39,009 bases of DNA from a virus. Lineage: Duplodnaviria > Heunggongvirae > Uroviricota > Caudoviricetes. The stretch covers positions 1 through 39,009 of the IMG/VR virus record IMGVR_UViG_2540341091_000002; one strand, written 5' to 3'. The notes under the pieces were generated by a model that saw only the letters and a program-made list of their open reading frames with translations, was not told the origin of the DNA and did not search any database. Position 1 is the first letter of the stretch. Every line of letters starts with the position of its first letter. Shown here piece by piece: positions 1 to 39,009 of the stretch. The position numbers and the translations under genes are program-made.

Positions 1-90
1 TTGCCTCCCCCCCGTTGATGGGTAAAATAGCCGCAATTTTTCGTTTTCAACAAGCGCGGCGCGATGCCGCTTACTCAAGAAGAAAGAATT

Positions 91-165
91 ATGACGTTGT
101 CTCCTTATTTGCAAGAGGTGGCGAAGCGCCGCACTTTTGCCATTATTTCTCACCCCAATAATTAA
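91..165 (+). pseudogene. prfC: 5' fragment of peptide chain release factor 3 gene (prfC) truncated at the prophage junction (attL side)
   Basis: ORF at 91 encodes [22 protein letters not shown], which I recognise as the RF3 N-terminus; it diverges to NN-stop exactly where the GTP-binding P-loop (DAGKTT) should follow. Recognition is from memory, not a search. Confidence 0.6.
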
Positions 166-319
166 GCCTAAATTAAAGCTCTTTTACTCTTTCAAAATCC
201 TTTCAGTTAATTGAGGTTGAGTAATATAACTCATTTAAATACATTTAGTTATGTGGCTTCTTTAATTGAAAATTCTTTCATGTAACTTTAAATCGATCTG
301 CTTGCTTTCATCAAAAATC

Positions 320-378
320 TGTACATATGCTTGTACATAATGTACAAAGCAGCAGAGGTGTTTTGCGATTTGTACAAG
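320..378. repeat. Four copies of TGTACA(W)(R) immediately upstream of the integrase start; possible regulator or integrase binding sites
   Basis: tgtacata at 320 and 332, tgtacaaa at 341, tgtacaag at 371; similar GTAC-core palindromes occur in the cI-cro operator region. Confidence 0.45.
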
Positions 379-385
379 GTGAGTA

Positions 386-1609
386 ATGGCGCTGTCTGAT
401 GCGTGGTTGCGTTCAGTCGTTGGAAAGGAACGTGATAAGGTTTTGGTTAAATCCGATCGTGATGGTCTGTCTGTCAGAGTATCACCGAAAGGTCGCGTAG
501 TGTTCCAATATCGTTATCAATGGGCAGGGAAAGGTGAGCGTCTTGATATCGGAACTTACCCGGCAACTGGATTAAAAGAGGCCAGAGAAGAAGTTATCCG
601 TCTCCGTGGTGAACTCGAGTCAAACCGTAATCCACGATTGGTCAAGCAGGCTGAAAAACGAAAAGCTACTGAAGCCATGACGGTAGAGTCTGTGATCCGT
701 GCCTGGTATGAAGCATATTGTGTAAAAAATAAAAAAGGCTCTGAACAGATACTCCGCTCGTTTGAGCTGCACCTGTTCTCTAAAATCGGGAATATCCCTC
801 ACGATGCAGCTACATTGCATGATTGGTTAGAAGTCCTGGAGCCTCTTAGCACTAAGACTCCAGCAATAGCAGACCGATTGCTAATTAACGCAAAGCAGGC
901 CCATGTCTGGGCGTATAAGAGAAAGCTCATTGAAACTCGCCCGCTGTCGGATATCACGGGTAAAGATATGGATATCCGTAAAGGTCAGAAGAAACGGTTT
1001 CTGACACATGATGAAATTAAAATCCTTTATGCTGCGATCGATGGTTCTCGAATGGTTCCTAAATACCGGGCCTTCATTAAACTATTGCTGCATTTTGGCT
1101 GCCGTAGTTCAGAGCTAATTACCGCCAGGGTGGACGATTTTGATTTCATTAATAAAGTATGGACTGTACCACCAGAACGACATAAGACTGGGGAGATAAC
1201 GGGCGAACCGCTAAAACGGCCCATTATTGAACCGGTTGAAGAGCTTATAAAGTACGCTATTTCTATGAACAATGGTTCCGATATGCTTTTTACTAAGGAA
1301 GGAAGCAGGGAACCCGTTGGTCGGACATCATTGCAGTCGCTGCCTTACAATTTAATGCAGTATGCATGGCGGCGTTTGGGGTATCAATTCCCTCATTGGT
1401 CTCTGCATGATTTGAGGCGAACAGCACGAACAAACTTTTCTGATCTTACTGCGCCTCATATCGCAGAAATAATGCTCGGTCATAAACTGCCGGGGGTATG
1501 GCAAGTTTATGACAAGAGTGATTATTTAGAAGAACAGCGTAAAGCCTACCAGGCATGGTGGGAGAGAGTTGAATCGATTGTTACTTGTTCTGGTTCAGAC
1601 ACCAACTGA
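386..1609 (+). CDS. int: Tyrosine site-specific integrase (P4-type family)
   Basis: 407 aa; N-terminal arm-binding-like region (VSPKGRVVFQYRYQWAGKGERLDIGTYP) and C-terminal catalytic region with HDLRRTARTNF and LGHK...VYD motifs typical of phage integrases; sits next to the disrupted host gene. Confidence 0.9.
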   Translation: MALSDAWLRSVVGKERDKVLVKSDRDGLSVRVSPKGRVVFQYRYQWAGKGERLDIGTYPATGLKEAREEVIRLRGELESNRNPRLVKQAEKRKATEAMTVESVIRAWYEAYCVKNKKGSEQILRSFELHLFSKIGNIPHDAATLHDWLEVLEPLSTKTPAIADRLLINAKQAHVWAYKRKLIETRPLSDITGKDMDIRKGQKKRFLTHDEIKILYAAIDGSRMVPKYRAFIKLLLHFGCRSSELITARVDDFDFINKVWTVPPERHKTGEITGEPLKRPIIEPVEELIKYAISMNNGSDMLFTKEGSREPVGRTSLQSLPYNLMQYAWRRLGYQFPHWSLHDLRRTARTNFSDLTAPHIAEIMLGHKLPGVWQVYDKSDYLEEQRKAYQAWWERVESIVTCSGSDTN

Positions 1610-1781
1610 CAGTTTGCATATTTTGAACGCAATAAAATATGACAGTCCGCTTTGAGCGAGGAGCGGATATATGATGTTTAGAAAACGCGCGATTTGCAGT
1701 TAAGCAATCTAAGTTACTGATGTACTATACTGGAACTGCTGGCCAGTTTGTGTTGAACACCATCATTATCACAATAAGGAA

Positions 1782-3035
1782 ATGAAAGTCGAAATGAATA
1801 CTAAACTTTTGGCCTATTTAAACAATGAGTTACATGGAGTGTGGATAGATAGTGAAAATCGTAATATCCACATAATACTTAAATCAAGCCTTCCTATAAT
1901 TAAATCCGTCTGGTCAGGAGCACCTATCCACTTTTTGGTAGGTTTATCTACTAAAAATATACTAGTGATTGGGATGTTGATTGAAGATAATGTCGATAAT
2001 CCATTTTTACTAGCCTATCCACCAAGAGAGGCAGATGAAATTAAAGGGCTGGATTTGTTATTGTCAGGCGCTTATGATGGTATTCTATTATCATTTTTTG
2101 ACTCGCATACAATGCGTGTTATGGACCTGAAAATAAAAGTTTCGGAAAATTTACCGTGTGAATGTTTAAAAAAATTTTGTGCTAATTCATATTCTCTCAA
2201 TTCAGGATTTAGGGAAGGTAATGAAGCAATGGATGAATTCTGCAACAATGCTTTGACTGGTAACGAGAAAATAATTAGTCTGCCACTAAGTGTAATCGAT
2301 AAAAAATCTTACCTAGCAAGTGTTCATGAACCAAACGATACCGTATTAACATATGAATTTAGCGTCAGTGAAAACGGCTCTGAGGGATATGAGCAGGAAG
2401 CTCTTATATACCATGCTTTGCGGCAGGTCTTTTCACCGGAGGAAGTGTTTTTTTCTCCAGATATTATTGAGGGTAATAAAAAAAGAGAACTAGTTGATAT
2501 TCTTATTGTAGAAAATGACTATGTATTATCTATACAGTCTAAAGCATCATCTTTGATTGAAATGGGTTTAAAATCTCATGAAAAGCTTTGTAGCATGTAT
2601 AAGAAAAAAGCATTGCAAGGGATCGATCAGGTTAAAGGCGTTATCCCAATTCTAAATAATGATGTGGTTATTAATTATGACGGGAGGGAATGCTTAATAA
2701 AGCGCAGAAAGGGTATTTATCATTTAGTGATAATCTCAGATCTTGTTTTAGAGAAAGAAGGTGCTGAAAAGATTTATAACGAAATTAGCAACCTTAAAGA
2801 GTCAAAAGGGGCGAAAGTTTTAGTTATGAGCCTTGAAGGTCTTGTAAATTTTATAAGACTATCAAGATTAAATAAAAGAATGTTTTGGGCAATGCTGGAG
2901 ACTAAATACAAGTTCAGCATAAAAAACCGTACAATTTTAATTAGAGATATCGACTCTAGCCAAGAGAATAATCTACCATTACTTGCCACTGATCAATACC
3001 TATCACTTCTTCGAGGTACGGGAAAATTAAAATAA
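1782..3035 (+). CDS. Hypothetical AT-rich cargo protein; possible PD-(D/E)xK-like nuclease core (candidate defence or abortive-infection gene)
   Basis: 417-aa ORF with AAGGA ribosome-binding site upstream; composition is markedly AT-rich (roughly one-third G+C by eye, against about half in flanking phage genes); residues ~200-255 (EQEALIYHAL...ELVDILIVENDYVLSIQSK) fit an alpha-beta-beta-beta D...QxK pattern; no family recognised. Confidence 0.6.
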   Translation: MKVEMNTKLLAYLNNELHGVWIDSENRNIHIILKSSLPIIKSVWSGAPIHFLVGLSTKNILVIGMLIEDNVDNPFLLAYPPREADEIKGLDLLLSGAYDGILLSFFDSHTMRVMDLKIKVSENLPCECLKKFCANSYSLNSGFREGNEAMDEFCNNALTGNEKIISLPLSVIDKKSYLASVHEPNDTVLTYEFSVSENGSEGYEQEALIYHALRQVFSPEEVFFSPDIIEGNKKRELVDILIVENDYVLSIQSKASSLIEMGLKSHEKLCSMYKKKALQGIDQVKGVIPILNNDVVINYDGRECLIKRRKGIYHLVIISDLVLEKEGAEKIYNEISNLKESKGAKVLVMSLEGLVNFIRLSRLNKRMFWAMLETKYKFSIKNRTILIRDIDSSQENNLPLLATDQYLSLLRGTGKLK

Positions 3036-3220
3036 ATTGTATCAATGATACTGTTGCCACGTATCGAGACTGGCTTATGAACGGAAGGGTTTTCCAGCAG
3101 TTCAGCGACCGGAGCTGCACATCGATGCCGGATTGTGCCTGCAATTATGTACTTGGCTAAGAGGTGCTGCTGGCTCTGGATAGAATAACCCTAACGTCCA
3201 AAGAGCGCGCATTTTCATGT

Positions 3221-3261
3221 AAAAAAATAAATAGCTTGTCTGCTCTTGATACAGAGCAGAC
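3221..3261 (-). terminator. Rho-independent terminator ending the leftward early operon
   Basis: Perfect 9-bp inverted repeat gtctgctct/agagcagac with 6-nt loop (3238-3261); on the minus strand it is followed by a T-rich run (plus-strand aaaaaaataaata at 3221-3233). Confidence 0.5.
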
Positions 3262-3320
3262 AGTCAGATCTGTTTGGCTTGTGCCATAGATGTGCCAGCT
3301 CACATTTGAGCTAATGTTTG

Positions 3321-3515
3321 TTACTCAATTACTCCTGCAAACCTGTATATCTTACGTGATGCCCATTTATTTGGGCAGGATTTAATATCAGGATCTGGAA
3401 AATCAGGCCGATATTTCTGACCAGTCCTCCGGTTTACACTGTTCCAGCGAAGCACCGTCGATATTGAAACGCCACAGAATTCGGCGACTTGTTTTGTTGT
3501 CATTAAGTTGTTCAT
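3321..3515 (-). CDS. Excisionase-like helix-turn-helix DNA-binding protein (AlpA/TorI/Xis type), probable recombination directionality factor
   Basis: Start taken at internal Met (MNNLMTTKQVAEFCGVSISTVLRW...), which forms an ATGA overlap with the upstream gene stop; small HTH protein at the end of the operon near int. Confidence 0.6.
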   Translation of the reverse strand: MNNLMTTKQVAEFCGVSISTVLRWNSVNRRTGQKYRPDFPDPDIKSCPNKWASRKIYRFAGVIE

Positions 3516-3859
3516 TGTTGACCCTCCTGTGGTTGTGCAGTTGAAAGACTCATGCCCGCGCGTTGTTGCCAGACGACCCAGCCGAGAGCCATATCCCACG
3601 CCATGTACTCGTTATCACCGTTTTTTGCTCTCCGACGATCGACTGTTTTACCGAAACGCTTTTCCATAAATAATTCATAGGCTGCGCGTTCATCTGGCTC
3701 AACTTCCAGAGATGCCAGTGCAATCCGTGCCAGTTCTAAATCATCTTCAAGCTCAGCGCGAATCTCAGCGAATGCACTCTGTGTTAAGGCGAACTCAATG
3801 CTCTGCACTTTATTCCGTGCGCGCTCAAGCAGTGCATGGTAGTTAATTTCGGTTGTCAT
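3512..3859 (-). CDS. Hypothetical prophage early protein
   Basis: 115-aa ORF translationally coupled to neighbours on both sides; acidic helical sequence; no family recognised with confidence. Confidence 0.55.
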   Translation of the reverse strand: MTTEINYHALLERARNKVQSIEFALTQSAFAEIRAELEDDLELARIALASLEVEPDERAAYELFMEKRFGKTVDRRRAKNGDNEYMAWDMALGWVVWQQRAGMSLSTAQPQEGQQ

Positions 3860-4734
3860 ACCCCTACCTCTTCGAATTTCAATACCAATTGATCACCCCA
3901 GATTTCACATGACTCTGAACACGAGCCGGTATCGAATCGCCTGGCCTGTACCATCGCCTGATACAAATTTCTGTAGTCGCTGTTGGCAGACATTCTGGCA
4001 ATTCCGTCAAGCGTCAGGTGACCACGGTACATAACGTCTTTACCTGTTCTGCGATGACCATCCCTGACGTGTTTGCCTGTAACCAGCTCATTAAAAACTC
4101 GCATCAGACCAGGTTCGTCTTTACATGCAAGCCCCAGCTTTTGCGTTGACTTTTTGATGCAGAAAACACAGTTCCCGAGATGCTCCGGGATTTGCAAATC
4201 AAAAGGTTGTTTTCGCCACCACCGGATAACATCCGACTTATCAAAATCTGACAGTTCGGCAAGATACCGGACGCCCGATTTCGGTTTCAGCCTACGGGGT
4301 TCGTCTGCACGAATACCCAGCCATGTGATGTAATTACCTCGCCCGAAATGGTTATCGCAGTATTTCGTGAAAGGGATGAGTTTTAGCCTGTCAGTACAGA
4401 ACGCGCCGCCGATGTATGGCGTGCCGTACTTTTTAACCATGTCCATAAACGGTTTAAGTACCGGCATTCGCGTCTGAATATCCTTTGGCTCCCATTCTGT
4501 ATAACCATTTGGCTGCCCAAGCTCAGGATTGATATCGACCTGCAACACAGTTAGTGGTATGCCCCAGAACTTCACAACCTCCCGAATAAAGCGGTATGTC
4601 AGCGGATGTTCGCAACCGGTATCCATAAAGATGTAGCAGACGTTATTGCCAGCCTTTCTTTGTTCTTCCATCAGGTGAACAAGATATGCAGATGTTCTCC
4701 CGCCGGAAAAACTAACTACATGAGTTATGCACAT
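3856..4734 (-). CDS. Phosphoadenosine phosphosulfate (PAPS) reductase family protein, PP-loop ATP pyrophosphatase fold
   Basis: 292 aa; N-terminal VVSFSGGRTS PP-loop-like motif typical of the PAPS-reductase family; 10-bp overlap with upstream gene. Confidence 0.75.
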   Translation of the reverse strand: MCITHVVSFSGGRTSAYLVHLMEEQRKAGNNVCYIFMDTGCEHPLTYRFIREVVKFWGIPLTVLQVDINPELGQPNGYTEWEPKDIQTRMPVLKPFMDMVKKYGTPYIGGAFCTDRLKLIPFTKYCDNHFGRGNYITWLGIRADEPRRLKPKSGVRYLAELSDFDKSDVIRWWRKQPFDLQIPEHLGNCVFCIKKSTQKLGLACKDEPGLMRVFNELVTGKHVRDGHRRTGKDVMYRGHLTLDGIARMSANSDYRNLYQAMVQARRFDTGSCSESCEIWGDQLVLKFEEVGV

Positions 4735-5261
4735 TTGCGTAACTCCGATAACTCGTTAAAACGTTCCATAAACATCCCGTAGGCATGTCCTGGTGCCAGT
4801 GGAATCACTTTGAACATCTCTGTTGCCGGGATACCTTCCAGTACAGGCCAGAAAGAGCCATCATCAAGCCCGAGATCGCGGCGTTCGGTTGCCAGCATAA
4901 TGAGATCGGCATATTTCACTGGCGTGCTCATAACAGGAGGTAACCCGTATTTCTCACGGATTACGGCGTCTATTTTTTCTTCCATCTGTTTATAGTCAGG
5001 AAGAAGGCGTTTCAGTGGCGCGGGGATGTCCTGACAATACGCTTCTGTTGCATCATGCATTAACGCTTCAAAAGCAAACTCCTCCGGAACCAGTTTGCTG
5101 CAAAGCACCGCATGTTGGGCGACGCTGTAGAAGTGTGAAAGATGACCGGCAAAGCGACAGATATTTGAAAGGGAAACTGCGATATCGTTAATCACGATGT
5201 CGTCTTTATTTATCCTGTCATAATAAAAATGCTTCCCGGAAAAAGTTTTAATAAATGACAT
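4725..5261 (-). CDS. yfdR: HD-domain phosphohydrolase (YfdR-like, 5'-deoxynucleotidase family)
   Basis: Start placed at MSFIK (GGAG 6 nt upstream), giving 178 aa; HD motif in ALMHDATEAY; length and neighbours match the CPS-53 yfdP-yfdQ-yfdR arrangement as I recall it. Confidence 0.65.
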   Translation of the reverse strand: MSFIKTFSGKHFYYDRINKDDIVINDIAVSLSNICRFAGHLSHFYSVAQHAVLCSKLVPEEFAFEALMHDATEAYCQDIPAPLKRLLPDYKQMEEKIDAVIREKYGLPPVMSTPVKYADLIMLATERRDLGLDDGSFWPVLEGIPATEMFKVIPLAPGHAYGMFMERFNELSELRKCA

Positions 5262-5389
5262 TTTGTTCTCCACTTTATATGCGCTGCACCGCGCTGAATT
5301 TTGGTTAAAGAAAACCCTCGCCATCAGGCGATTATTGAGTTAATTACGTTTCCATAAATGCCCCCGCAGGGGCATTTGCAGTAATGAAA

Positions 5390-6214
5390 TCAGGCGGTGA
5401 AAGTACCAATAAAGGTTTCTACTTTGCTGTCTTTGAATTTTTCAACAAGCAGATTACGAAATTCGTTAGCCATTTCTTCCTGTACTGCTTCCAGCTGAAT
5501 AATGCGCAGAACCAGTACAGGGCGATCACCAGTGATAATGCTGAGGCGTAATTTAAACGGACGTTCTTTCAGGCCTTCAAACGGAACGCATTTAAACTCA
5601 AATACTACTGGCATAATGTCTTTAGTTTTCGCTTCGACAGACTCCATCAGAGAGCGTTTGCCGCTGAAGTCATTGTCTTCAAAATCAGCGGTCTGGTTTG
5701 CTTCAATCGTGATTTTACGGACCGCCGCAGCCGCTTTTGTTGCCTGAATGGCGTCACCATTAGCATCAAAGCCCACAAGGTAGTCGGCCCAGTCTTCAAT
5801 CCATTCTGCCAGTGACTTCTGGGAGTTACGCTCGCCGTTAACAGACAACAGGGCAGAGAACGGTGCTGTCTTTTTCAGTTTGAGAGTGGCGGTGTTATCT
5901 GCGTGACCTGGTTCATCAATAGTACCCAGGTTAAGCACACTGACGGCACGCATATTATCGGCATCGATAAAGCAGCGGGTGCCTTCATCTGCAAGAACTT
6001 TAGAATAACGGGTAAAGTCATCGATGCTGGCAGTGGAAAGCGCACCACGGAAACGGAAGCGATTTAAATTAAATTTTTCCAGATCATGAATGCGGAAATT
6101 CTCAGGCAATGCCACAGCATCGGCACCAATCTTACTGATAATTTCATTAACACCCTGAGCAGAAATAAGGGCATGGATTTGATTAATTGCGGTTGCGTCT
6201 AAGTTCTGAGACAT
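5390..6214 (-). CDS. yfdQ: YfdQ-like prophage protein (DUF2303 family), function unknown
   Basis: 274 aa, same length and position as CPS-53 YfdQ between YfdP-like and YfdR-like genes; assignment from recollection of the family, not a search. Confidence 0.6.
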
Positions 6215-6278
6215 AATAAGTCCTCACTATATAAAGATATTCAGTGATGAGATAAATAATCAGTTTATTAGAACGATA

Positions 6279-6641
6279 TTAACGACCTGCTGCGCGGAGT
6301 TTTCCGTCAGGTTCACCGGCAAGAGTCAGTAATTGTCCTTGGTCTTCCTGCAGAATAGTCAGGCGACCACCGCGATTGACATACATCGGCGTTTCGGTGG
6401 TGTCTTCTTCGGAAATTTTCCCGCGGTTAGTCGGGCGAACATATGAGAGTTTGTGTTTGATTTTTACACGGTTCTCATCAAACGGTTCGATTTCCAGGTT
6501 GAGCGAGACCTTACCTTTGGTTTTCGTGTTCATCACACCGGAAGCGACTTCACTGAGAACAGCGCCGATTTTGGTTTCAAATACGCCGCCGTCCAGCTCC
6601 CCGATAAATGCCTGCACATCAGTACTGCGTTCGCTAGCCAT
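6279..6641 (-). CDS. yfdP: YfdP-like prophage protein, function unknown
   Basis: Start placed at MASERSTD (AGGAG upstream), giving 120 aa; the longer track ORF has a Cys-rich, improbable N-terminal extension. Confidence 0.55.
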   Translation of the reverse strand: MASERSTDVQAFIGELDGGVFETKIGAVLSEVASGVMNTKTKGKVSLNLEIEPFDENRVKIKHKLSYVRPTNRGKISEEDTTETPMYVNRGGRLTILQEDQGQLLTLAGEPDGKLRAAGR

Positions 6642-7350
6642 TTTGCTGCTCCTCATCATATCGACCCCGCAAGGTCGGTTGGTTTCTCCACAAAACAGAG
6701 AAGAACACCAGCGGTGGCAGCCGCCCGGATGGATTGGGTTATGAGCCCGTCGTCCGGTGATGCCCTTCTCTGTTTTGTAAAAAGAGCGGTACCAGCCGGA
6801 AGCAAGTGTACAAACTGGTACCGCCAAAGCAGTGGCTGTTGTGGTGACCGGTGCTGATCTCCGGCTTGCGGTTATTTCAGACTCTCACGGGCGTTTAATT
6901 GCCCCGCCGAACAGCTCTTTTCCGCAATAGCTGCAATGTCTTTCGCGCATCAGCCTGCGCATTCACCACAACGCTGAGAGCATTGCCGGTGTCCGAATCG
7001 AACGGACCTTTTCCCTGCCCAACCCTCCCATCTGAATGGGACTGTCTGGAATTGAACCAGCACTTATGCCTTGCTCGTCAATGCTCTCATCGTTGCGTCC
7101 TGGTCTCTTCCCAAGCGTCAAACCGAATCGCCACGCTGGTTAGGCGTCTTATCAGCATCCTCATTGACTTGCACATTCCGGCTACCTGGTTTGTTTGCCC
7201 GAGCAAGGAGTGGATTATCCCCTTTAACGTCCCCAGACCGCTAACGACGCATGTGCCATACGCCGTGTTACAACCAAATTTTGTTTGAATCTTGCCTGCC
7301 TCATGTTTCTTTTGGATACATTATGTATCTCATAGGTACATTGTCAAGTA

Positions 7351-33995: not shown

Positions 33996-35040
33996 ATTTC
34001 AGCGCCCGACGCTGGCAGAAAATATCAGTATGCTCCGTAACGATTTATTCGCCAGGCTGGACGTCAGCGACACGCTCCGGCGCATGGATGAAGACGTGCG
34101 GGCAAAGGTGTATGCGGCGGCGCTGCATACGGTTTACGGGTACATCGATTATCTGGCAATGAACATGCTGCCTGACCTGTGCGATGAGTCCTGGCTGGCG
34201 CGACATGCTGCGATGAAACGGTGTCCGCGCAAGGGGGCCACGGCTGCCAGCGGGTATATGCGCTGGGAAGGTGTCAGCGATGGCCTGAAGGTGACTGCCG
34301 GGAGCGTGATTCAGCGCGATGACCTGGTTCAGTACACGGCAACTGCTGATGCAACCAGCTCCGGTGGTGTCCTGCGCGTGCCGATCACTTGCTCAAGTGC
34401 AGGCGCGGTCGGTAACGCTGACGACGGTACGGCATTAATCCTGGTCACGCCGGTGAATGGTCTGCCGTCTTCCGGTGTTGCAGATACTCTGACTGGCGGA
34501 TTCGATACTGAAGATCTGGAAACGTGGCGCGCCCGCGTCATTGAGCGGTATTACTGGACGCCGCAGGGCGGGGCTGACGGGGACTATGTCGTCTGGGCTA
34601 AAGAAGTGCCCGGCATTACCCGCGCATGGACATACCGTCACTGGATGGGAACGGGAACTGTCGGTGTGATGATTGCCAGCAGTGACCTGATTAATCCCAT
34701 TCCGGAAGAATCAACGGAAACGGCGGCAAGACAACATATCGGGCCACTGGCCCCGGTGGCAGGCTCTGATTTGTATGTGTTCAGGCCGGTGGCACATACG
34801 GTGGATTTTCATATCCGCGTGACGCCGGACACACCGGAAATACGGGCTGCCATCACCGCGGAGTTGCGTTCGTTCCTGCTGCGTGATGGTTATCCGCAGG
34901 GAGAACTGAAGGTATCGCGTATCAGTGAGGCGATTTCCGGTGCGAACGGGGAATACAGCCATCAGTTGCTTACACCGGCAGACAATATCTCCATTGCAAA
35001 AAATGAACTGGCGGTACTGGGGACGATTTCATGGACGTGA
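33982..35040 (+). CDS. Baseplate J-like protein
   Basis: 352 aa; canonical position before the tail-fibre genes. Confidence 0.75.
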
Positions 35041-35615
35041 CAAACGATGATTACATCCGTCTGTTGTCGGCACTGTTGCCCCCCGGTCCGGCGTGGTCAG
35101 CCAGCGATCCGGCGATTGCCGGTGCGGCACCGTCATTAACCCGCGTTCATCAGCGTGCGGATGCCCTGATGCGGGAGCTGGATCCGCGCACTACCACTGA
35201 ACTGATAAACCGCTGGGAGCGTCTGTGCGGTCTGCCGGATGAATGTATTCCCGCAGGGACACAGACCCTTCGCCAGCGTCAGCAACGGCTGGATGCGAAG
35301 GTTAACCTGTCGGGTGGCATCAACGAGGATTTTTATCTTGCACAGCTTGCTGCCCTGGGCAGACCAGATGCCACCATCACGCGATACGACAAAAGCACGT
35401 TCACCTGCTCATCGGCCTGTACTGACGCTGTGAACGCGCCTGAATGGCGGTATTACTGGCAGGTCAACATGCCAGCCGCCACCAACACCACCTGGATGAC
35501 ATGTGGCGATCCCTGTGATTCCGCACTGCGTATCTGGGGCGACACCGTTGTCGAGTGTGTGCTTAACAAACTCTGCCCGTCGCATACCTACGTAATTTTT
35601 AAATATCCGGAGTAA
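35031..35615 (+). CDS. Tail protein (Mu gp48-like / YmfQ-like, DUF2313 family)
   Basis: 194 aa; same length and position as e14 YmfQ-type proteins immediately upstream of the tail fibre gene. Confidence 0.65.
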
Positions 35616-35618
35616 TCC

Positions 35619-36269
35619 ATGCATCGTATAGACACGAAAACTGCGCAGAAGGATAAGTTCGGCGCGGGTAAGAACGGTTTTACCCGTGGTAACCCCCAGA
35701 CCGGCACGCCTGCCACCGATCTGGATGATGACTACTTTGACATGTTGCAGGAGGAGCTTTGCAGCGTTGTGGAGGCGTCCGGTGCCAGCCTGGAGAAGGG
35801 GCGGCACGACCAGCTGCTTACCGCGCTTCGTGCGCTGCTGTTAAGCCGCAAGAATCCGTTTGGTGATATCAAATCGGATGGCACGGTGAAAACGGCTCTC
35901 GAAAACCTTGGTTTGGGAGAAGCGGCGAAAAGGGATGTAGGCACAGGAGAAAATCAGATACCGGATATGTCAGCCTGGAAAAGAAATCCGAGTTCTAATC
36001 GCTGGAGAAAATTGCCTGATGGAACCATCATTCAAATGGGAATATCAGCATCAGGGCCATTAGGCTCACCTGTAAATATCACCCTGCCGATATCTTTCAG
36101 CAATACCAATTATTGTGTTGTTGCATCGTACGATAATGCACGGTCAGGTGTGTCAACAATGGTTAGTTTTGCAGCATTACCTGTTTCACCATCGCAATTT
36201 TCCCTGATGTCATCTGTGACTGAGCAAGGAATAAATCCTTTTGCTTACTGGATTGCTTTTGGAGATTGA
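35619..36269 (+). CDS. Tail fibre protein (constant N-terminus fused to the variable C-terminal cassette currently in the expressed orientation)
   Basis: 216 aa; the crossover site lies within the codons for ENLGLGE; followed by a tail-fibre assembly gene. Confidence 0.75.
35896..35921. repeat. Left recombination site of the invertible tail-fibre segment (gix/pix-like, 26 bp, dyad-symmetric)
   Basis: ctctcgaaaacc-tt-ggtttgggagaa; half-sites match in 9 of 12 positions; the reverse complement shares a 14-bp perfect core with the site at 37701. Confidence 0.6.
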
Positions 36270-36272
36270 TAA

Positions 36273-36692
36273 ATGGACAGATACTTCTATTCACAAAAAG
36301 AAAATGGTTTTTTTACCGATTTAAATAAAGCACCTTCAGATGCTGTTGAGATAACCACGGATGAATGGCTATCACTACTGGATGGTCAGGATAATGGCAT
36401 GAAAATAGTCAGCAATCAGGAGGGATATCCGGTTTTGACAGAGCAACCACCTTTATCAAAAGAAAACCTTATTGCATTGGCAGAGTTGAAAAAAGGAAAA
36501 CTTATTAATGAAGCCAACGAGCACATGAACAGCAGGCAATGGCCTGGTAAAGCGGCTATTGGTCGTCTGAAAGGTGAGGAACTGGCGCAATATAATTTGT
36601 GGCTGGATTATCTGGACGCACTGGAGCTGGTCGATACTTCCAGTGCGCCAGATATTGAATGGCCTACGCCTCCGGCAGTTCAGGCCAGATGA
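36273..36692 (+). CDS. Tail fibre assembly protein (Tfa), expressed orientation
   Basis: 139 aa; C-terminus DIEWPTPPAVQAR resembles Tfa C-termini; directly follows the tail fibre gene. Confidence 0.8.
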   Translation: MDRYFYSQKENGFFTDLNKAPSDAVEITTDEWLSLLDGQDNGMKIVSNQEGYPVLTEQPPLSKENLIALAELKKGKLINEANEHMNSRQWPGKAAIGRLKGEELAQYNLWLDYLDALELVDTSSAPDIEWPTPPAVQAR

Positions 36693-37257
36693 TATCCGGC
36701 GCGGTGCTGGTATCTGTTACCGTCACCGCGTCAATGTAATCCAGCACGGCGTTAAGTCGGGTTGTTTCTGCCTGCGTCAGTTTCCGTCCGGCCTGCAATT
36801 TCAGTTGAATCAGACTAATGGAAGCCATTGCAGTATCAATCAGTGACTGACGTTGTGCTTCTGCCGCGTCTACTGCGGCGCTATGCTGTGCCTCGGTATC
36901 CGTCACCCATTTCTCACCATCCCATTTATCGTATGGCGTTAACGGTGAAAGCGTGACATAACCGTCTTTGATGGCACCGATATAATCCACTGTAACAGCT
37001 GCGCCATTTTCTGTTGAGTAAACAGTCTCATTGCGATGGTCTTCTTCATGGCTCCATCCCTTACCCGTAAATACTGCCACTTTTCCCGGAATGTTTTCGC
37101 CAGGGTCAATACCAGTGGAACAGGCGGGCATACTTACGCCAGTATTAATATATTCATCAGACCAGCCCGTATACTCAGATGTTTCAGCATCATAATAAAA
37201 ACAACGCATATCGCCCGGCACTGTAGCCAGCCCATTTTCATCAAAAACAGGTTTCAT
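36664..37257 (-). CDS. Tail fibre assembly protein (alternative Tfa, inverted orientation)
   Basis: 197 aa; C-terminus DIIWPELPEA parallels the plus-strand Tfa; convergent 3' ends overlap, as in Mu U/U' and e14 tfaP/tfaE. Confidence 0.8.
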   Translation of the reverse strand: MKPVFDENGLATVPGDMRCFYYDAETSEYTGWSDEYINTGVSMPACSTGIDPGENIPGKVAVFTGKGWSHEEDHRNETVYSTENGAAVTVDYIGAIKDGYVTLSPLTPYDKWDGEKWVTDTEAQHSAAVDAAEAQRQSLIDTAMASISLIQLKLQAGRKLTQAETTRLNAVLDYIDAVTVTDTSTAPDIIWPELPEA

Positions 37258-37726
37258 TATTTAGCCCTCACCAGAAAGTTAAATGCAATATTTCGCGGTC
37301 TGACTGCAACAAAATTCACACCATCACCCACAGAGTTACTGGTGAAATTAAATCGTGAAAATCCTGGCTGATTTCCGGCGATGCCATCATGAAAGTTAAT
37401 TGCGTGTCCCGCACCTTCGCCTATATTCCCGGCAAACTGAGAAAAGTTTGTAGCGTTCTGCCAGCTTAATAATTCGCGACCACCGTCTACACCTCGCCCG
37501 TCATCCCAGACACGAATGAAATCACCGCGTGCGTCAGGTAATGCCAGCGCCGGAAACACTTTCGCCAGCACAGGGTAATCAGTGGCAGAAAATTTCGCCC
37601 CGTTGAACTTCAAAAACACCATACTGGACCAGCTGTCGATTACAGTATTTGGCATTGCAGCGGACGGCCAGAAGAACGGAACGCCAATAGCTGGAGAACC
37701 TTCTCCCAAACCAACGTTTATGAAAA
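37257..37726 (-). CDS. Silent alternative tail-fibre C-terminal cassette (no own start; expressed only after inversion). Boundaries approximate
   Basis: Open frame continues from the right crossover site (encoding GLGEG, matching LGLGE in the expressed gene); the track ORF's apparent start MSGNIGANP lies inside the IS2 end and is artefactual. Confidence 0.6.
37701..37726. repeat. Right recombination site of the invertible tail-fibre segment (inverted copy of the 35896 site)
   Basis: ttctcccaaaccaacgtttatgaaaa; first 14 bp identical to the reverse complement of the left site, 19 of 26 overall. Confidence 0.6.
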
Positions 37727-37780
37727 TGCAGAAATAACGAGCAAATGGCATCATTCCTGCTTTTGTCAGTGGATTTGCCC

Positions 37781-38686
37781 CTATATTTCCAGACATCTGT
37801 TATCACTTAACCCATTACAAGCCCGCTGCCGCAGATATTCCCGTGGCGAGCGATAACCCAGCGCACTATGCGGATGCCATTCGTTATAATGCTCGAACGC
37901 CTCTGCAAGGTTCTTTGCTGCCGTTAACCCGTCTGGTTTGGGCATGATACTGATGTAGTCACGCTTTATCGTTTTCACGAAGCTCTCTGCTATTCCGTTA
38001 CTCTCCGGACTCCGCACCGCCGTGTTCTTCGGTTCAAGTCCCAACATCCGGGCGAACTGGCGTGTTTCATTAGCCCGGTAGCATGAACCATTATCCGTCA
38101 GCCACTCCACTGGAGACGACGGAAGATCGTTGCCGAAGCGGCGTTCCACCGCTCCCAGCATGACGTCCTGTACTGTTTCACTGTTGAAGCCGCCGGTAGT
38201 GACCGCCCAGTGCAGTGCCTCACGATCACAGCAGTCCAGCGCGAACGTGACACGCAGTCTCTCTCCGTTATCACAGCAGAACTCGAACCCGTCAGAGCAC
38301 CATCGCTGATTGCTTTCTTTCACGGCCACTCTGCCTGTATGTGCCCGTTTCGATGGCGGTACAGCAGGTTTTCGCTCAAGCAACAGCGCATTCTGGCGCA
38401 TGATCCGGTAAACACGTTTGGCATTGATCGCAGGCATACCATCAAGTTCTGCCTGTCTGCGAAGCAGCGCCCATACCCGACGATAACCATACGTGGGCAG
38501 CTCTCCGATAACATGGTGTATACGGAGAAGCACATCCGTATCATCAGTGTGACGACTGCGGCGGCCATCCATCCAGTCATCGGTTCGTCTGAGAATGACG
38601 TGCAACTGCGCACGCGACACCCGGAGACAACGGCTGACTAAGCTTACTCCCCATCCCCGGGCAATAAGGGCGCGTGCGCTATCCAC
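37781..38686 (-). CDS. insD: IS2 transposase OrfB (InsD; DDE integrase-like catalytic domain)
   Basis: 301 aa beginning [16 protein letters not shown]; recognised as IS2 InsD. Confidence 0.9.
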
Positions 38687-39009
38687 TTTTTTGCCCGTCC
38701 ATATTCAACGGCTTCTTTGAGGAGTTCATTTTCCATCGTTTTCTTGCCGAGCAGGCGCTGGAGTTCTTTAATCTGCTTCATGGCGGCAGCAAGTTCAGAG
38801 GCAGGAACAACCTGTTCTCCGGCGGCGACAGCAGTAAGACTTCCTTCCTGGTATTGCTTACGCCAGAGAAATAACTGGCTGGCTGCTACACCATGTTGCC
38901 GGGCAACGAGGGAGACCGTCATCCCCGGTTCAAAGCTCTGCTGAACAATTGCGATCTTTTCCTGTGTGGTACGCCGTCTGCGTTTCTCCGGCCCTAAGAC
39001 ATCAATCAT
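38644..39009 (-). CDS. insC: IS2 OrfA (InsC; HTH DNA-binding component of the transposase)
   Basis: 121 aa beginning [33 protein letters not shown]; start codon at the last three bases of the window. Confidence 0.9.

Follow-up and report, generated by a model that had tools for sequence, protein, structure and literature searches.

Organization of the locus

The DNA analyzed here is a stretch of 39,009 nt (the window), in which the region of interest begins behind a baseplate gene and ends at a copy of the insertion sequence IS2. The following features were assigned to it, from left to right.

35031-35615, plus strand: ymfQ-type baseplate gene of the Mu gp48 family (Pfam Phage_Mu_Gp48, E 4.5e-27)
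35619-36269, plus strand: tail-fibre gene as now assembled, 216 aa (open reading frame list, PHROG and Pfam)
35896-35921, minus strand: crossover site pixL (26/26 positions against the published pixL and K-12 e14; 1 mismatch to the Din consensus)
36273-36692, plus strand: cassette A tail-fibre assembly gene, 139 aa (Pfam Caudo_TAP, E 2.3e-26; PHROG 188, tail fibre assembly, E 1.5e-53)
36664-37257, minus strand: cassette B tail-fibre assembly gene, 197 aa, now silent (Pfam Caudo_TAP, E 1.2e-27; PHROG 105, tail fibre assembly, E 6e-85)
37257-37712, minus strand: silent fibre C-terminal cassette B (in-silico inversion and translation; PHROG 3100 and 523, tail (collar) fibre, E 2.6e-53 and 6.6e-43)
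37701-37726, plus strand: crossover site pixR (26/26 positions against the published pixR and K-12 e14; 1 mismatch to the Din consensus)

The counterpart of the first of these genes is annotated as a YmfQ family protein in loci that are 99% identical, and the gene preceding it encodes a Baseplate_J protein (Pfam). Because the genes upstream of it are of the Mu gp48/YmfQ and Baseplate_J types, the fibre gene is placed at the end of a contractile-tail late operon. It is composed of a constant part (35619-35909), which encodes residues 1-97 and extends up to the crossover, and the variable fibre part of cassette A (35910-36269). Residues 1-103 match a PHROG tail fibre family (phrog_1396, E 9e-74), and residues 131-215 match the Pfam family Gp53-like_C (E 5e-13). 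The first 100 residues of the protein are essentially the same as those of StfP of Escherichia coli K-12, with divergence after that point.

A sequence-only reading of the window had described two convergent cassettes, each with a fibre C-terminus and its assembly gene, and this layout agrees with the open reading frame list and the Pfam and PHROG assignments. All four cassette reading frames match tail-fibre or assembly families, and the two assembly genes overlap by 29 bp at their 3' ends. The fibre frame of cassette B, which also has a Pfam Collar match below threshold, ends at 37257 on the minus strand and runs outward through the right site, and the resulting minus-strand frame (37257-37796) carries a ...MMPFARYFCIFINVGLGEG... 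leader. Searches of PDB sequences with the two fibres returned marginal matches only (E 0.004-0.06).

Crossover sites

The left 26-bp site (35896-35921) reads CTCTCGAAAACC TT GGTTTGGGAGAA, which on the minus strand is TTCTCCCAAACC AA GGTTTTCGAGAG, and the right 26-bp site (37701-37726) reads TTCTCCCAAACC AA CGTTTATGAAAA. Each consists of 12-bp half-sites flanking a 2-bp core, and the two sites lie in inverted orientation, so that the core dinucleotides, TT at 35908-35909 and AA at 37713-37714, are one core on opposite strands. The inner half-sites of the two sites are perfect inverted copies of each other. Consistent with this, a repeat finder reported inverted-repeat arms of 20 nt at 35903-35922 and 37700-37719, which are 95% complementary and 1777 nt apart. 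The 14-mer TTCTCCCAAACCAA was found exactly twice in the window, on opposite strands; the search tolerated up to 2 mismatches, and at that setting shuffled sequences yielded 0.35 matches.

The sequence-only reading had proposed two dyad-symmetric 26-bp sites in inverted orientation, bounding an element at 35896-37726, and had called them gix/pix-like. These positions turned out to be the exact outer edges of the two sites. Neither dyad is perfect: counted by eye, symmetry holds at 10/12 positions of the left site and at 8/12 of the right. The likeness to pix sites can be sharpened to identity. Table 3 of PMC3241671 gives pixL as TTCTCCCAAACC AA GGTTTTCGAGAG and pixR as TTCTCCCAAACC AA CGTTTATGAAAA; the reverse complement of the left site is pixL and the right site is pixR, with 26/26 positions in each case. 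The same two 26-bp strings are present in the e14 element of K-12 MG1655, where they lie at the ends of stfP-tfaP-tfaE-stfE, and both were also found in every close relative examined.

The Din consensus, TTCNNNNAAACN NA NGTTTNNNNGAA, was taken from the same table. A search of the 39,009-nt window for TTCNNNNAAACNNANGTTTNNNNGAA, tolerating as many as 3 mismatches, matched nowhere but at these two sites, and each differs from the consensus by 1 mismatch on its best strand. With only two consensus matches in 39 kb, a multi-site system of the Min or shufflon type was ruled out.

Short inverted repeats are common, with 14 pairs listed in this 6-kb stretch, and the pair described here might in principle be a chance repeat in a mosaic tail-fibre region without any site-specific recombination. 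The 26/26 identity to both published pix sites is the first of three observations that speak against this reading, to which we assign a negligible probability; the other two are the reading frame and the orientations found in relatives, as follows.

Reading frame across the junction

The left site spans the fibre codons (A)LENLGLGE, in agreement with the earlier placement of the site at the LGLGE codons. The segment was inverted in silico by flipping 35910-37712, that is, at the central dinucleotides. In the inverted form, the fibre frame reads ...ENLGLGEGSPAIGVPFF... through the junction without a change of frame and encodes a protein of 248 aa, which comprises the constant N-terminus (residues 1-100) and cassette B. 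The silent cassette had been expected to resume in frame, and it does so. The stop codon of the 248-aa fibre overlaps the start of the 197-aa Caudo_TAP assembly gene. Thus, one constant 5' part joins alternative 3' parts, giving 216 or 248 aa, each followed by its own assembly gene. The frame is kept exactly across the junctions, which is the second observation against a chance repeat.

Both orientations among relatives

Orientations were counted in 5426 complete E. coli genomes. The orientation of the window was found full-length with both flanks in two of them, UTAK-14 and O121 WL1277, the latter with an extra IS3-family insertion within one assembly gene. The predicted inverted form was found in 12 of the 5426, in each case at 100% coverage as a single aligned piece with 97.4-99.2% identity. 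Both orientations that an active switch would produce are therefore found at the population level across the genomes of relatives (2 versus 12).

The most direct comparison is between UTAK-14 and UTAK-10. Over their 10-kb loci the flanks are 99.95-99.98% identical, and the sole difference is an inversion of 1817 bp, with the two alignments overlapping on the 20-bp repeat. The annotation of UTAK-10 includes the predicted 248-aa fused fibre, the sequence of which was read from its locus. At the level of aligned genomes, this is the pattern that site-specific inversion at precisely these two sites leaves behind. That both orientations occur between flanks of 99.9% identity, and that the breakpoints fall on the repeat, is the third observation against a chance repeat, and together with the pix identity it refutes that reading. 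The UTAK-14 and UTAK-10 isolates come from the same source type (veal).

Relationship to the e14 P segment and other inversion systems

The closest known system is the P segment of e14 in K-12 (stfP-tfaP-tfaE-stfE with pinE), which was described by Plasterk and van de Putte in 1985, as cited in PMC4272514 and PMC12529663. Besides identical pixL and pixR sites (26/26), it shares with the window the gene order, the convergent layout and assembly genes that overlap by 29 bp. Over 931 bp of ymfQ and the constant part of the fibre gene, the DNA identity is 96%. In contrast, the cargo has diverged, with protein identities of 60% overall for StfP (concentrated in the constant N-terminus), 55% for TfaP, 63% for TfaE and 43% for StfE, and the DNA conserved inside the segment is limited to the site regions and approximately 420 bp around the 3' ends of the assembly genes. 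The pinE gene of K-12 occupies the same position as in the relatives that lack IS2, and its product is 94% identical to theirs, whereas in the window IS2 lies between pixR and the pinE position. In addition, K-12 e14 is a remnant, whereas the window prophage has a full Mu/SfIV-like head and contractile-tail structural module; its head, sheath, tube and baseplate genes are apparently complete and 99.1% identical over 19 kb to the UTAK-14 prophage.

Judged from these comparisons, the segment is the e14 P segment, a system known since the 1980s, here carrying other cassette alleles, and over a dozen sequenced E. coli genomes contain the very same segment. Its one local oddity is the IS2 that lies between pixR and the place of pinE. 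We consider it very probable that the prophage belongs to the e14 family and that the region is its invertible P segment, a tail-fibre switch of the Din family (Hin/Gin/Cin/Pin).

Other members of this family resemble the segment in architecture. In the G segment of Mu (Gin/gix; S, U, S', U'), the constant fibre 5' part likewise lies outside the segment, which holds two convergent cassettes of fibre tip and assembly gene, and the invertase gene lies just past the distal site and is transcribed away from it, as is pinE in the relatives. The gix sites follow the common Din consensus, but their core is GA rather than AA, and the G segment is approximately 3 kb long, compared with 1.8 kb here; Mu S and U showed no tblastn similarity to the fibre and assembly proteins of the window at E <= 1e-3. 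The C segment of P1 (Cin/cix) has Din-family sites with the AA core found here, and the stretch of pinE that corresponds to nt 19-90 of cin, annotated as the Cin enhancer, aligns closely with it. However, the C segment is 4.2 kb long, cin flanks it on the opposite side and is transcribed in its direction, and the cargo is unrelated to that of the window by tblastn. The Min system of p15B and the Rci shufflons also vary the C-terminus of a fibre or pilus tip by site-specific inversion, and the mix sites of p15B fit the same Din consensus, but these systems have six or more sites and many segments, compared with two sites in 39 kb here, and the shufflons use a tyrosine recombinase.

A different role for the segment is raised by the K-12 element, where inversion of the P segment was reported to generate StfE2, a product that prevents T2 from adsorbing (PMC12529663, 2025). 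By extension, the short minus-strand frames (equivalents of StfE and StfE2) might have been domesticated by the host to block the adsorption of other phages, rather than to set the host range of the prophage itself. The window retains an equivalent minus-strand frame with its leader (37257-37796), and UTAK-10 has an annotated 132-aa StfE2-type frame. However, the apparently complete virion module of the window prophage means that an ordinary virion role is available, the cassette tips are only partly like those of K-12, as the StfE and overall StfP identities indicate, and a promoter scan near IS2 found no promoter-like site for the minus-strand frame. We therefore regard an anti-phage function as improbable, and the Din-family fibre switch as the reading to be carried forward.

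The invertase gene pinE and the IS2 insertion

The sequence-only reading had expected a serine invertase gene beyond IS2. Relatives without the insertion have such a gene, as pinE is annotated 54 nt after pixR in UTAK-14, UTAK-10 and O121 WL1277. Within the 39-kb window, which ends inside IS2, tblastn with Pin found no encoded serine recombinase. The Pin proteins of the relatives are 94% identical to K-12 PinE, 82-83% to P1 Cin and 79% to Mu Gin. In addition, the first 150 nt of their pinE genes are a close match to cin over the stretch that is annotated as the Cin enhancer in P1, and on this similarity the 5' DNA of pinE contains a candidate enhancer.

Beyond pixR, the window carries the following features.

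37727-37769, plus strand: remnant of the pixR-pinE spacer, the first 43 of the relatives' 54 nt (compared with UTAK-14 and K-12)
37770-39009, minus strand: IS2, 1240 bp of the element (Pfam; 98-99% identity to annotated IS2 copies)
37781-38686, minus strand: insD (Pfam rve, rve_3 and HTH_21)
38644-39009, minus strand: insC (Pfam HTH_Tnp_1)

Homology to the relatives ends at 37769, and the right inverted-repeat end of IS2 abuts the spacer at 37770. Thousands of E. coli records carry annotated IS2 copies that share 98-99% identity with this element. The window stops at the start codon of insC, and about 92 bp more would be needed to reach the far end of IS2. In the relatives, the uninterrupted sequence continues GGAGATCTACC ATG; IS2 thus entered 11 nt ahead of the start codon expected for pinE and just before the GGAG of its Shine-Dalgarno sequence. 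As insD and insC are on the minus strand, transcription of IS2 proceeds in the direction of the segment and not of pinE. A query spanning the pixR-IS2 junction found no place covering at least 80% of its length in the 5426 complete E. coli genomes. The exact junction 39-mer had 0 matches in GTDB representative genomes, IMG/VR and JGI metagenomes, and the chimeric 179-aa junction frame had no exact record in the protein index.

Since a native promoter would now be 1.3 kb away behind an oppositely transcribed IS2, expression of pinE in the strain of the window is probably reduced. The argument that IS2 cuts pinE off from its promoter is drawn only from the 11-nt distance, and a promoter scan of UTAK-14 found no sigma-70-like site upstream of pinE. 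This raises the question of whether the segment is a locked relic, namely, a genuine P segment in which IS2 has silenced or removed pinE, with the fibre frozen in the cassette A orientation unless a Din invertase is supplied in trans. The position and orientation of IS2 and the lack of an invertase gene within the window by tblastn are in line with this, and in genome L007 IS2 truncates a pin-family gene beside a similar segment. Moreover, K-12 mutants of pinE, and of pinE and pinQ, were reported to be locked in one orientation (PMC12529663).

Several considerations nevertheless point the other way. Genomes with a match hold a median of 2 matching places each, so that a related prophage, possibly with an invertase, may be present. 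IS2 usually makes a 5-bp target duplication, and such a duplication would leave the pinE Shine-Dalgarno and coding sequence intact. Invertases act at very low levels, and the enhancers of the Din family work at kilobase distances. Din invertases also cross-complement, as exemplified by PinQ of the Qin prophage, which inverts the K-12 e14 segment (PMC12529663). On balance, we consider permanent locking a serious prospect that falls somewhat short of an even chance, and it would leave the identification of the region as a P segment as it is.

A more elaborate consequence of the insertion can also be imagined. The minus-strand chimeric frame (37257-37796) has its start within the end of IS2 and shares sequence there with the stop codon of insD. 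IS2 might thus have rewired the switch in two ways, by uncoupling pinE from its promoter, with the fibre frozen or flipped only by the invertase of another prophage, and by transposase read-through that would drive the chimeric frame to yield a free StfE-type fibre-tip protein acting on the host surface like StfE2. We hold this combination to be highly improbable, and return to the Pin/pix fibre switch in what follows.

A model for the switch and its implications

In the Hin/Gin/Cin/Pin family, a serine invertase dimer sits on each site and the sites join a Fis-bound enhancer, which usually lies within the 5' end of the invertase gene; the four strands are then cleaved at the 2-bp core, and rotation of the subunits exchanges them. 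Segments of this family flip at low frequency, and a lysogen population consequently yields virions with either fibre tip. Accordingly modelled, the constant fibre 5' part (35619-35909) would be expressed from the late tail operon, and a Pin-type invertase would pair pixL with pixR, cut the 2-bp cores and rotate the strands, so that 35910-37712 flips. The present orientation would give the 216-aa fibre with the Gp53-like C-terminus and the 139-aa assembly protein, and the inverted one the 248-aa fibre with the collar-type C-terminus and the 197-aa assembly protein. The strand-exchange chemistry and the dependence of this segment on Fis and an enhancer are proposed by analogy with the Din family, and a change of receptor or host range upon inversion would likewise be expected from that family. 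In the strain of the window, IS2 would leave pinE at best separated from any native upstream promoter, and flipping may be slowed, need a related invertase in trans, or be lost. For K-12, inversion of the P segment by PinE and PinQ has been shown experimentally, with co-existing orientations in cultures (PMC12529663, PMC4272514).

The correct label for the region is a Pin/pix invertible tail-fibre switch, and its importance beyond annotation is small. In near-identical genomes, automated annotation names its parts "hypothetical protein" or "incomplete phage tail protein", and assemblies of such strains can legitimately differ by a 1.8-kb inversion. As the cassette alleles differ from those of K-12, they may recognize other receptors. 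In addition, the IS2 beside pixR offers a natural case in which to ask if switching continues once the invertase has been parted from its site and promoter.

The prophage that carries the segment is itself composite. Its left 7 kb is 99.9% identical to prophages with a different tail module, which in P21_SE1_04.20 is lambdoid, and this pattern of identities, set beside the structural module shared with UTAK-14, marks the window prophage as a mosaic.

The IS2 element beside the invertible segment and the reading frame it extends

The following features lie within or next to the invertible P segment.

36664-36692, 29-bp overlap of the 3' ends of the two convergent assembly genes
37257-37796, minus strand, 179-aa ORF that begins within IS2 and extends into the silent fibre cassette
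37770-39009, IS2 copy whose transposase genes read toward the invertible segment

Judged from IS2-free relatives, IS2 was inserted 11 nt upstream of the expected start of pinE, the serine invertase gene, and the start codon of insC forms the exact end of the window. At the other end of the element, the start ATG of the 179-aa ORF lies within IS2 and the ORF overlaps the insD stop codon, after which it crosses the spacer at pixR, the right-hand site of the segment, and continues into the silent fibre cassette. This ORF is the counterpart of K-12 stfE but carries an IS2-derived extension, and it had no entry in the protein index. Inside the segment, the only long stretch conserved in K-12 is the approximately 420 bp around the assembly-gene overlap (90.5%); K-12 e14 has an equivalent 3'-end overlap of convergent assembly genes at 5518-5546 of its locus (L003).

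Related segments in other genomes

In E. coli NZ_CM151362.1, a pin-family recombinase gene is truncated by IS2 (3581-5301 of locus L007) and adjoins a different fibre segment, which opens with an identical pixR sequence. This IS2 insertion, independent of the one in the window, is the second at such a locus. In O121 WL1277, the sole genome besides UTAK-14 in the window orientation among complete E. coli genomes, an IS3-family element is positioned inside the cassette A assembly gene (5091-6304 of locus L002). UTAK-14 (NZ_CP168998.1) has two copies of the segment in two prophages, at 1336980-1339252 and 5052891-5055160, which are in opposite orientations relative to their own constant regions; the copy in the window state shows 99.1% identity, the inverted copy 97.4%.

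Mosaic structure and left part of the prophage

The prophage is a mosaic: 74 complete genomes have prophages that match its left 7 kb (1-7000) at 99.9% identity, and at least one of these (L006) carries a lambdoid siphovirus tail module, in contrast to the contractile-tail module in the window. The left part includes the following features.

386-1609, prophage integrase
1782-3035, 417-aa ORF adjoining the integrase
3856-4734, minus strand, 292-aa PAPS-reductase-domain protein in the early region of the prophage

Pfam, NCBIfam and PADLOC gave no match for the 417-aa ORF, a possible cargo or defence gene in a region that appeared AT-rich by eye. The 292-aa protein gave an SspD-like match in PADLOC (E 3e-15).
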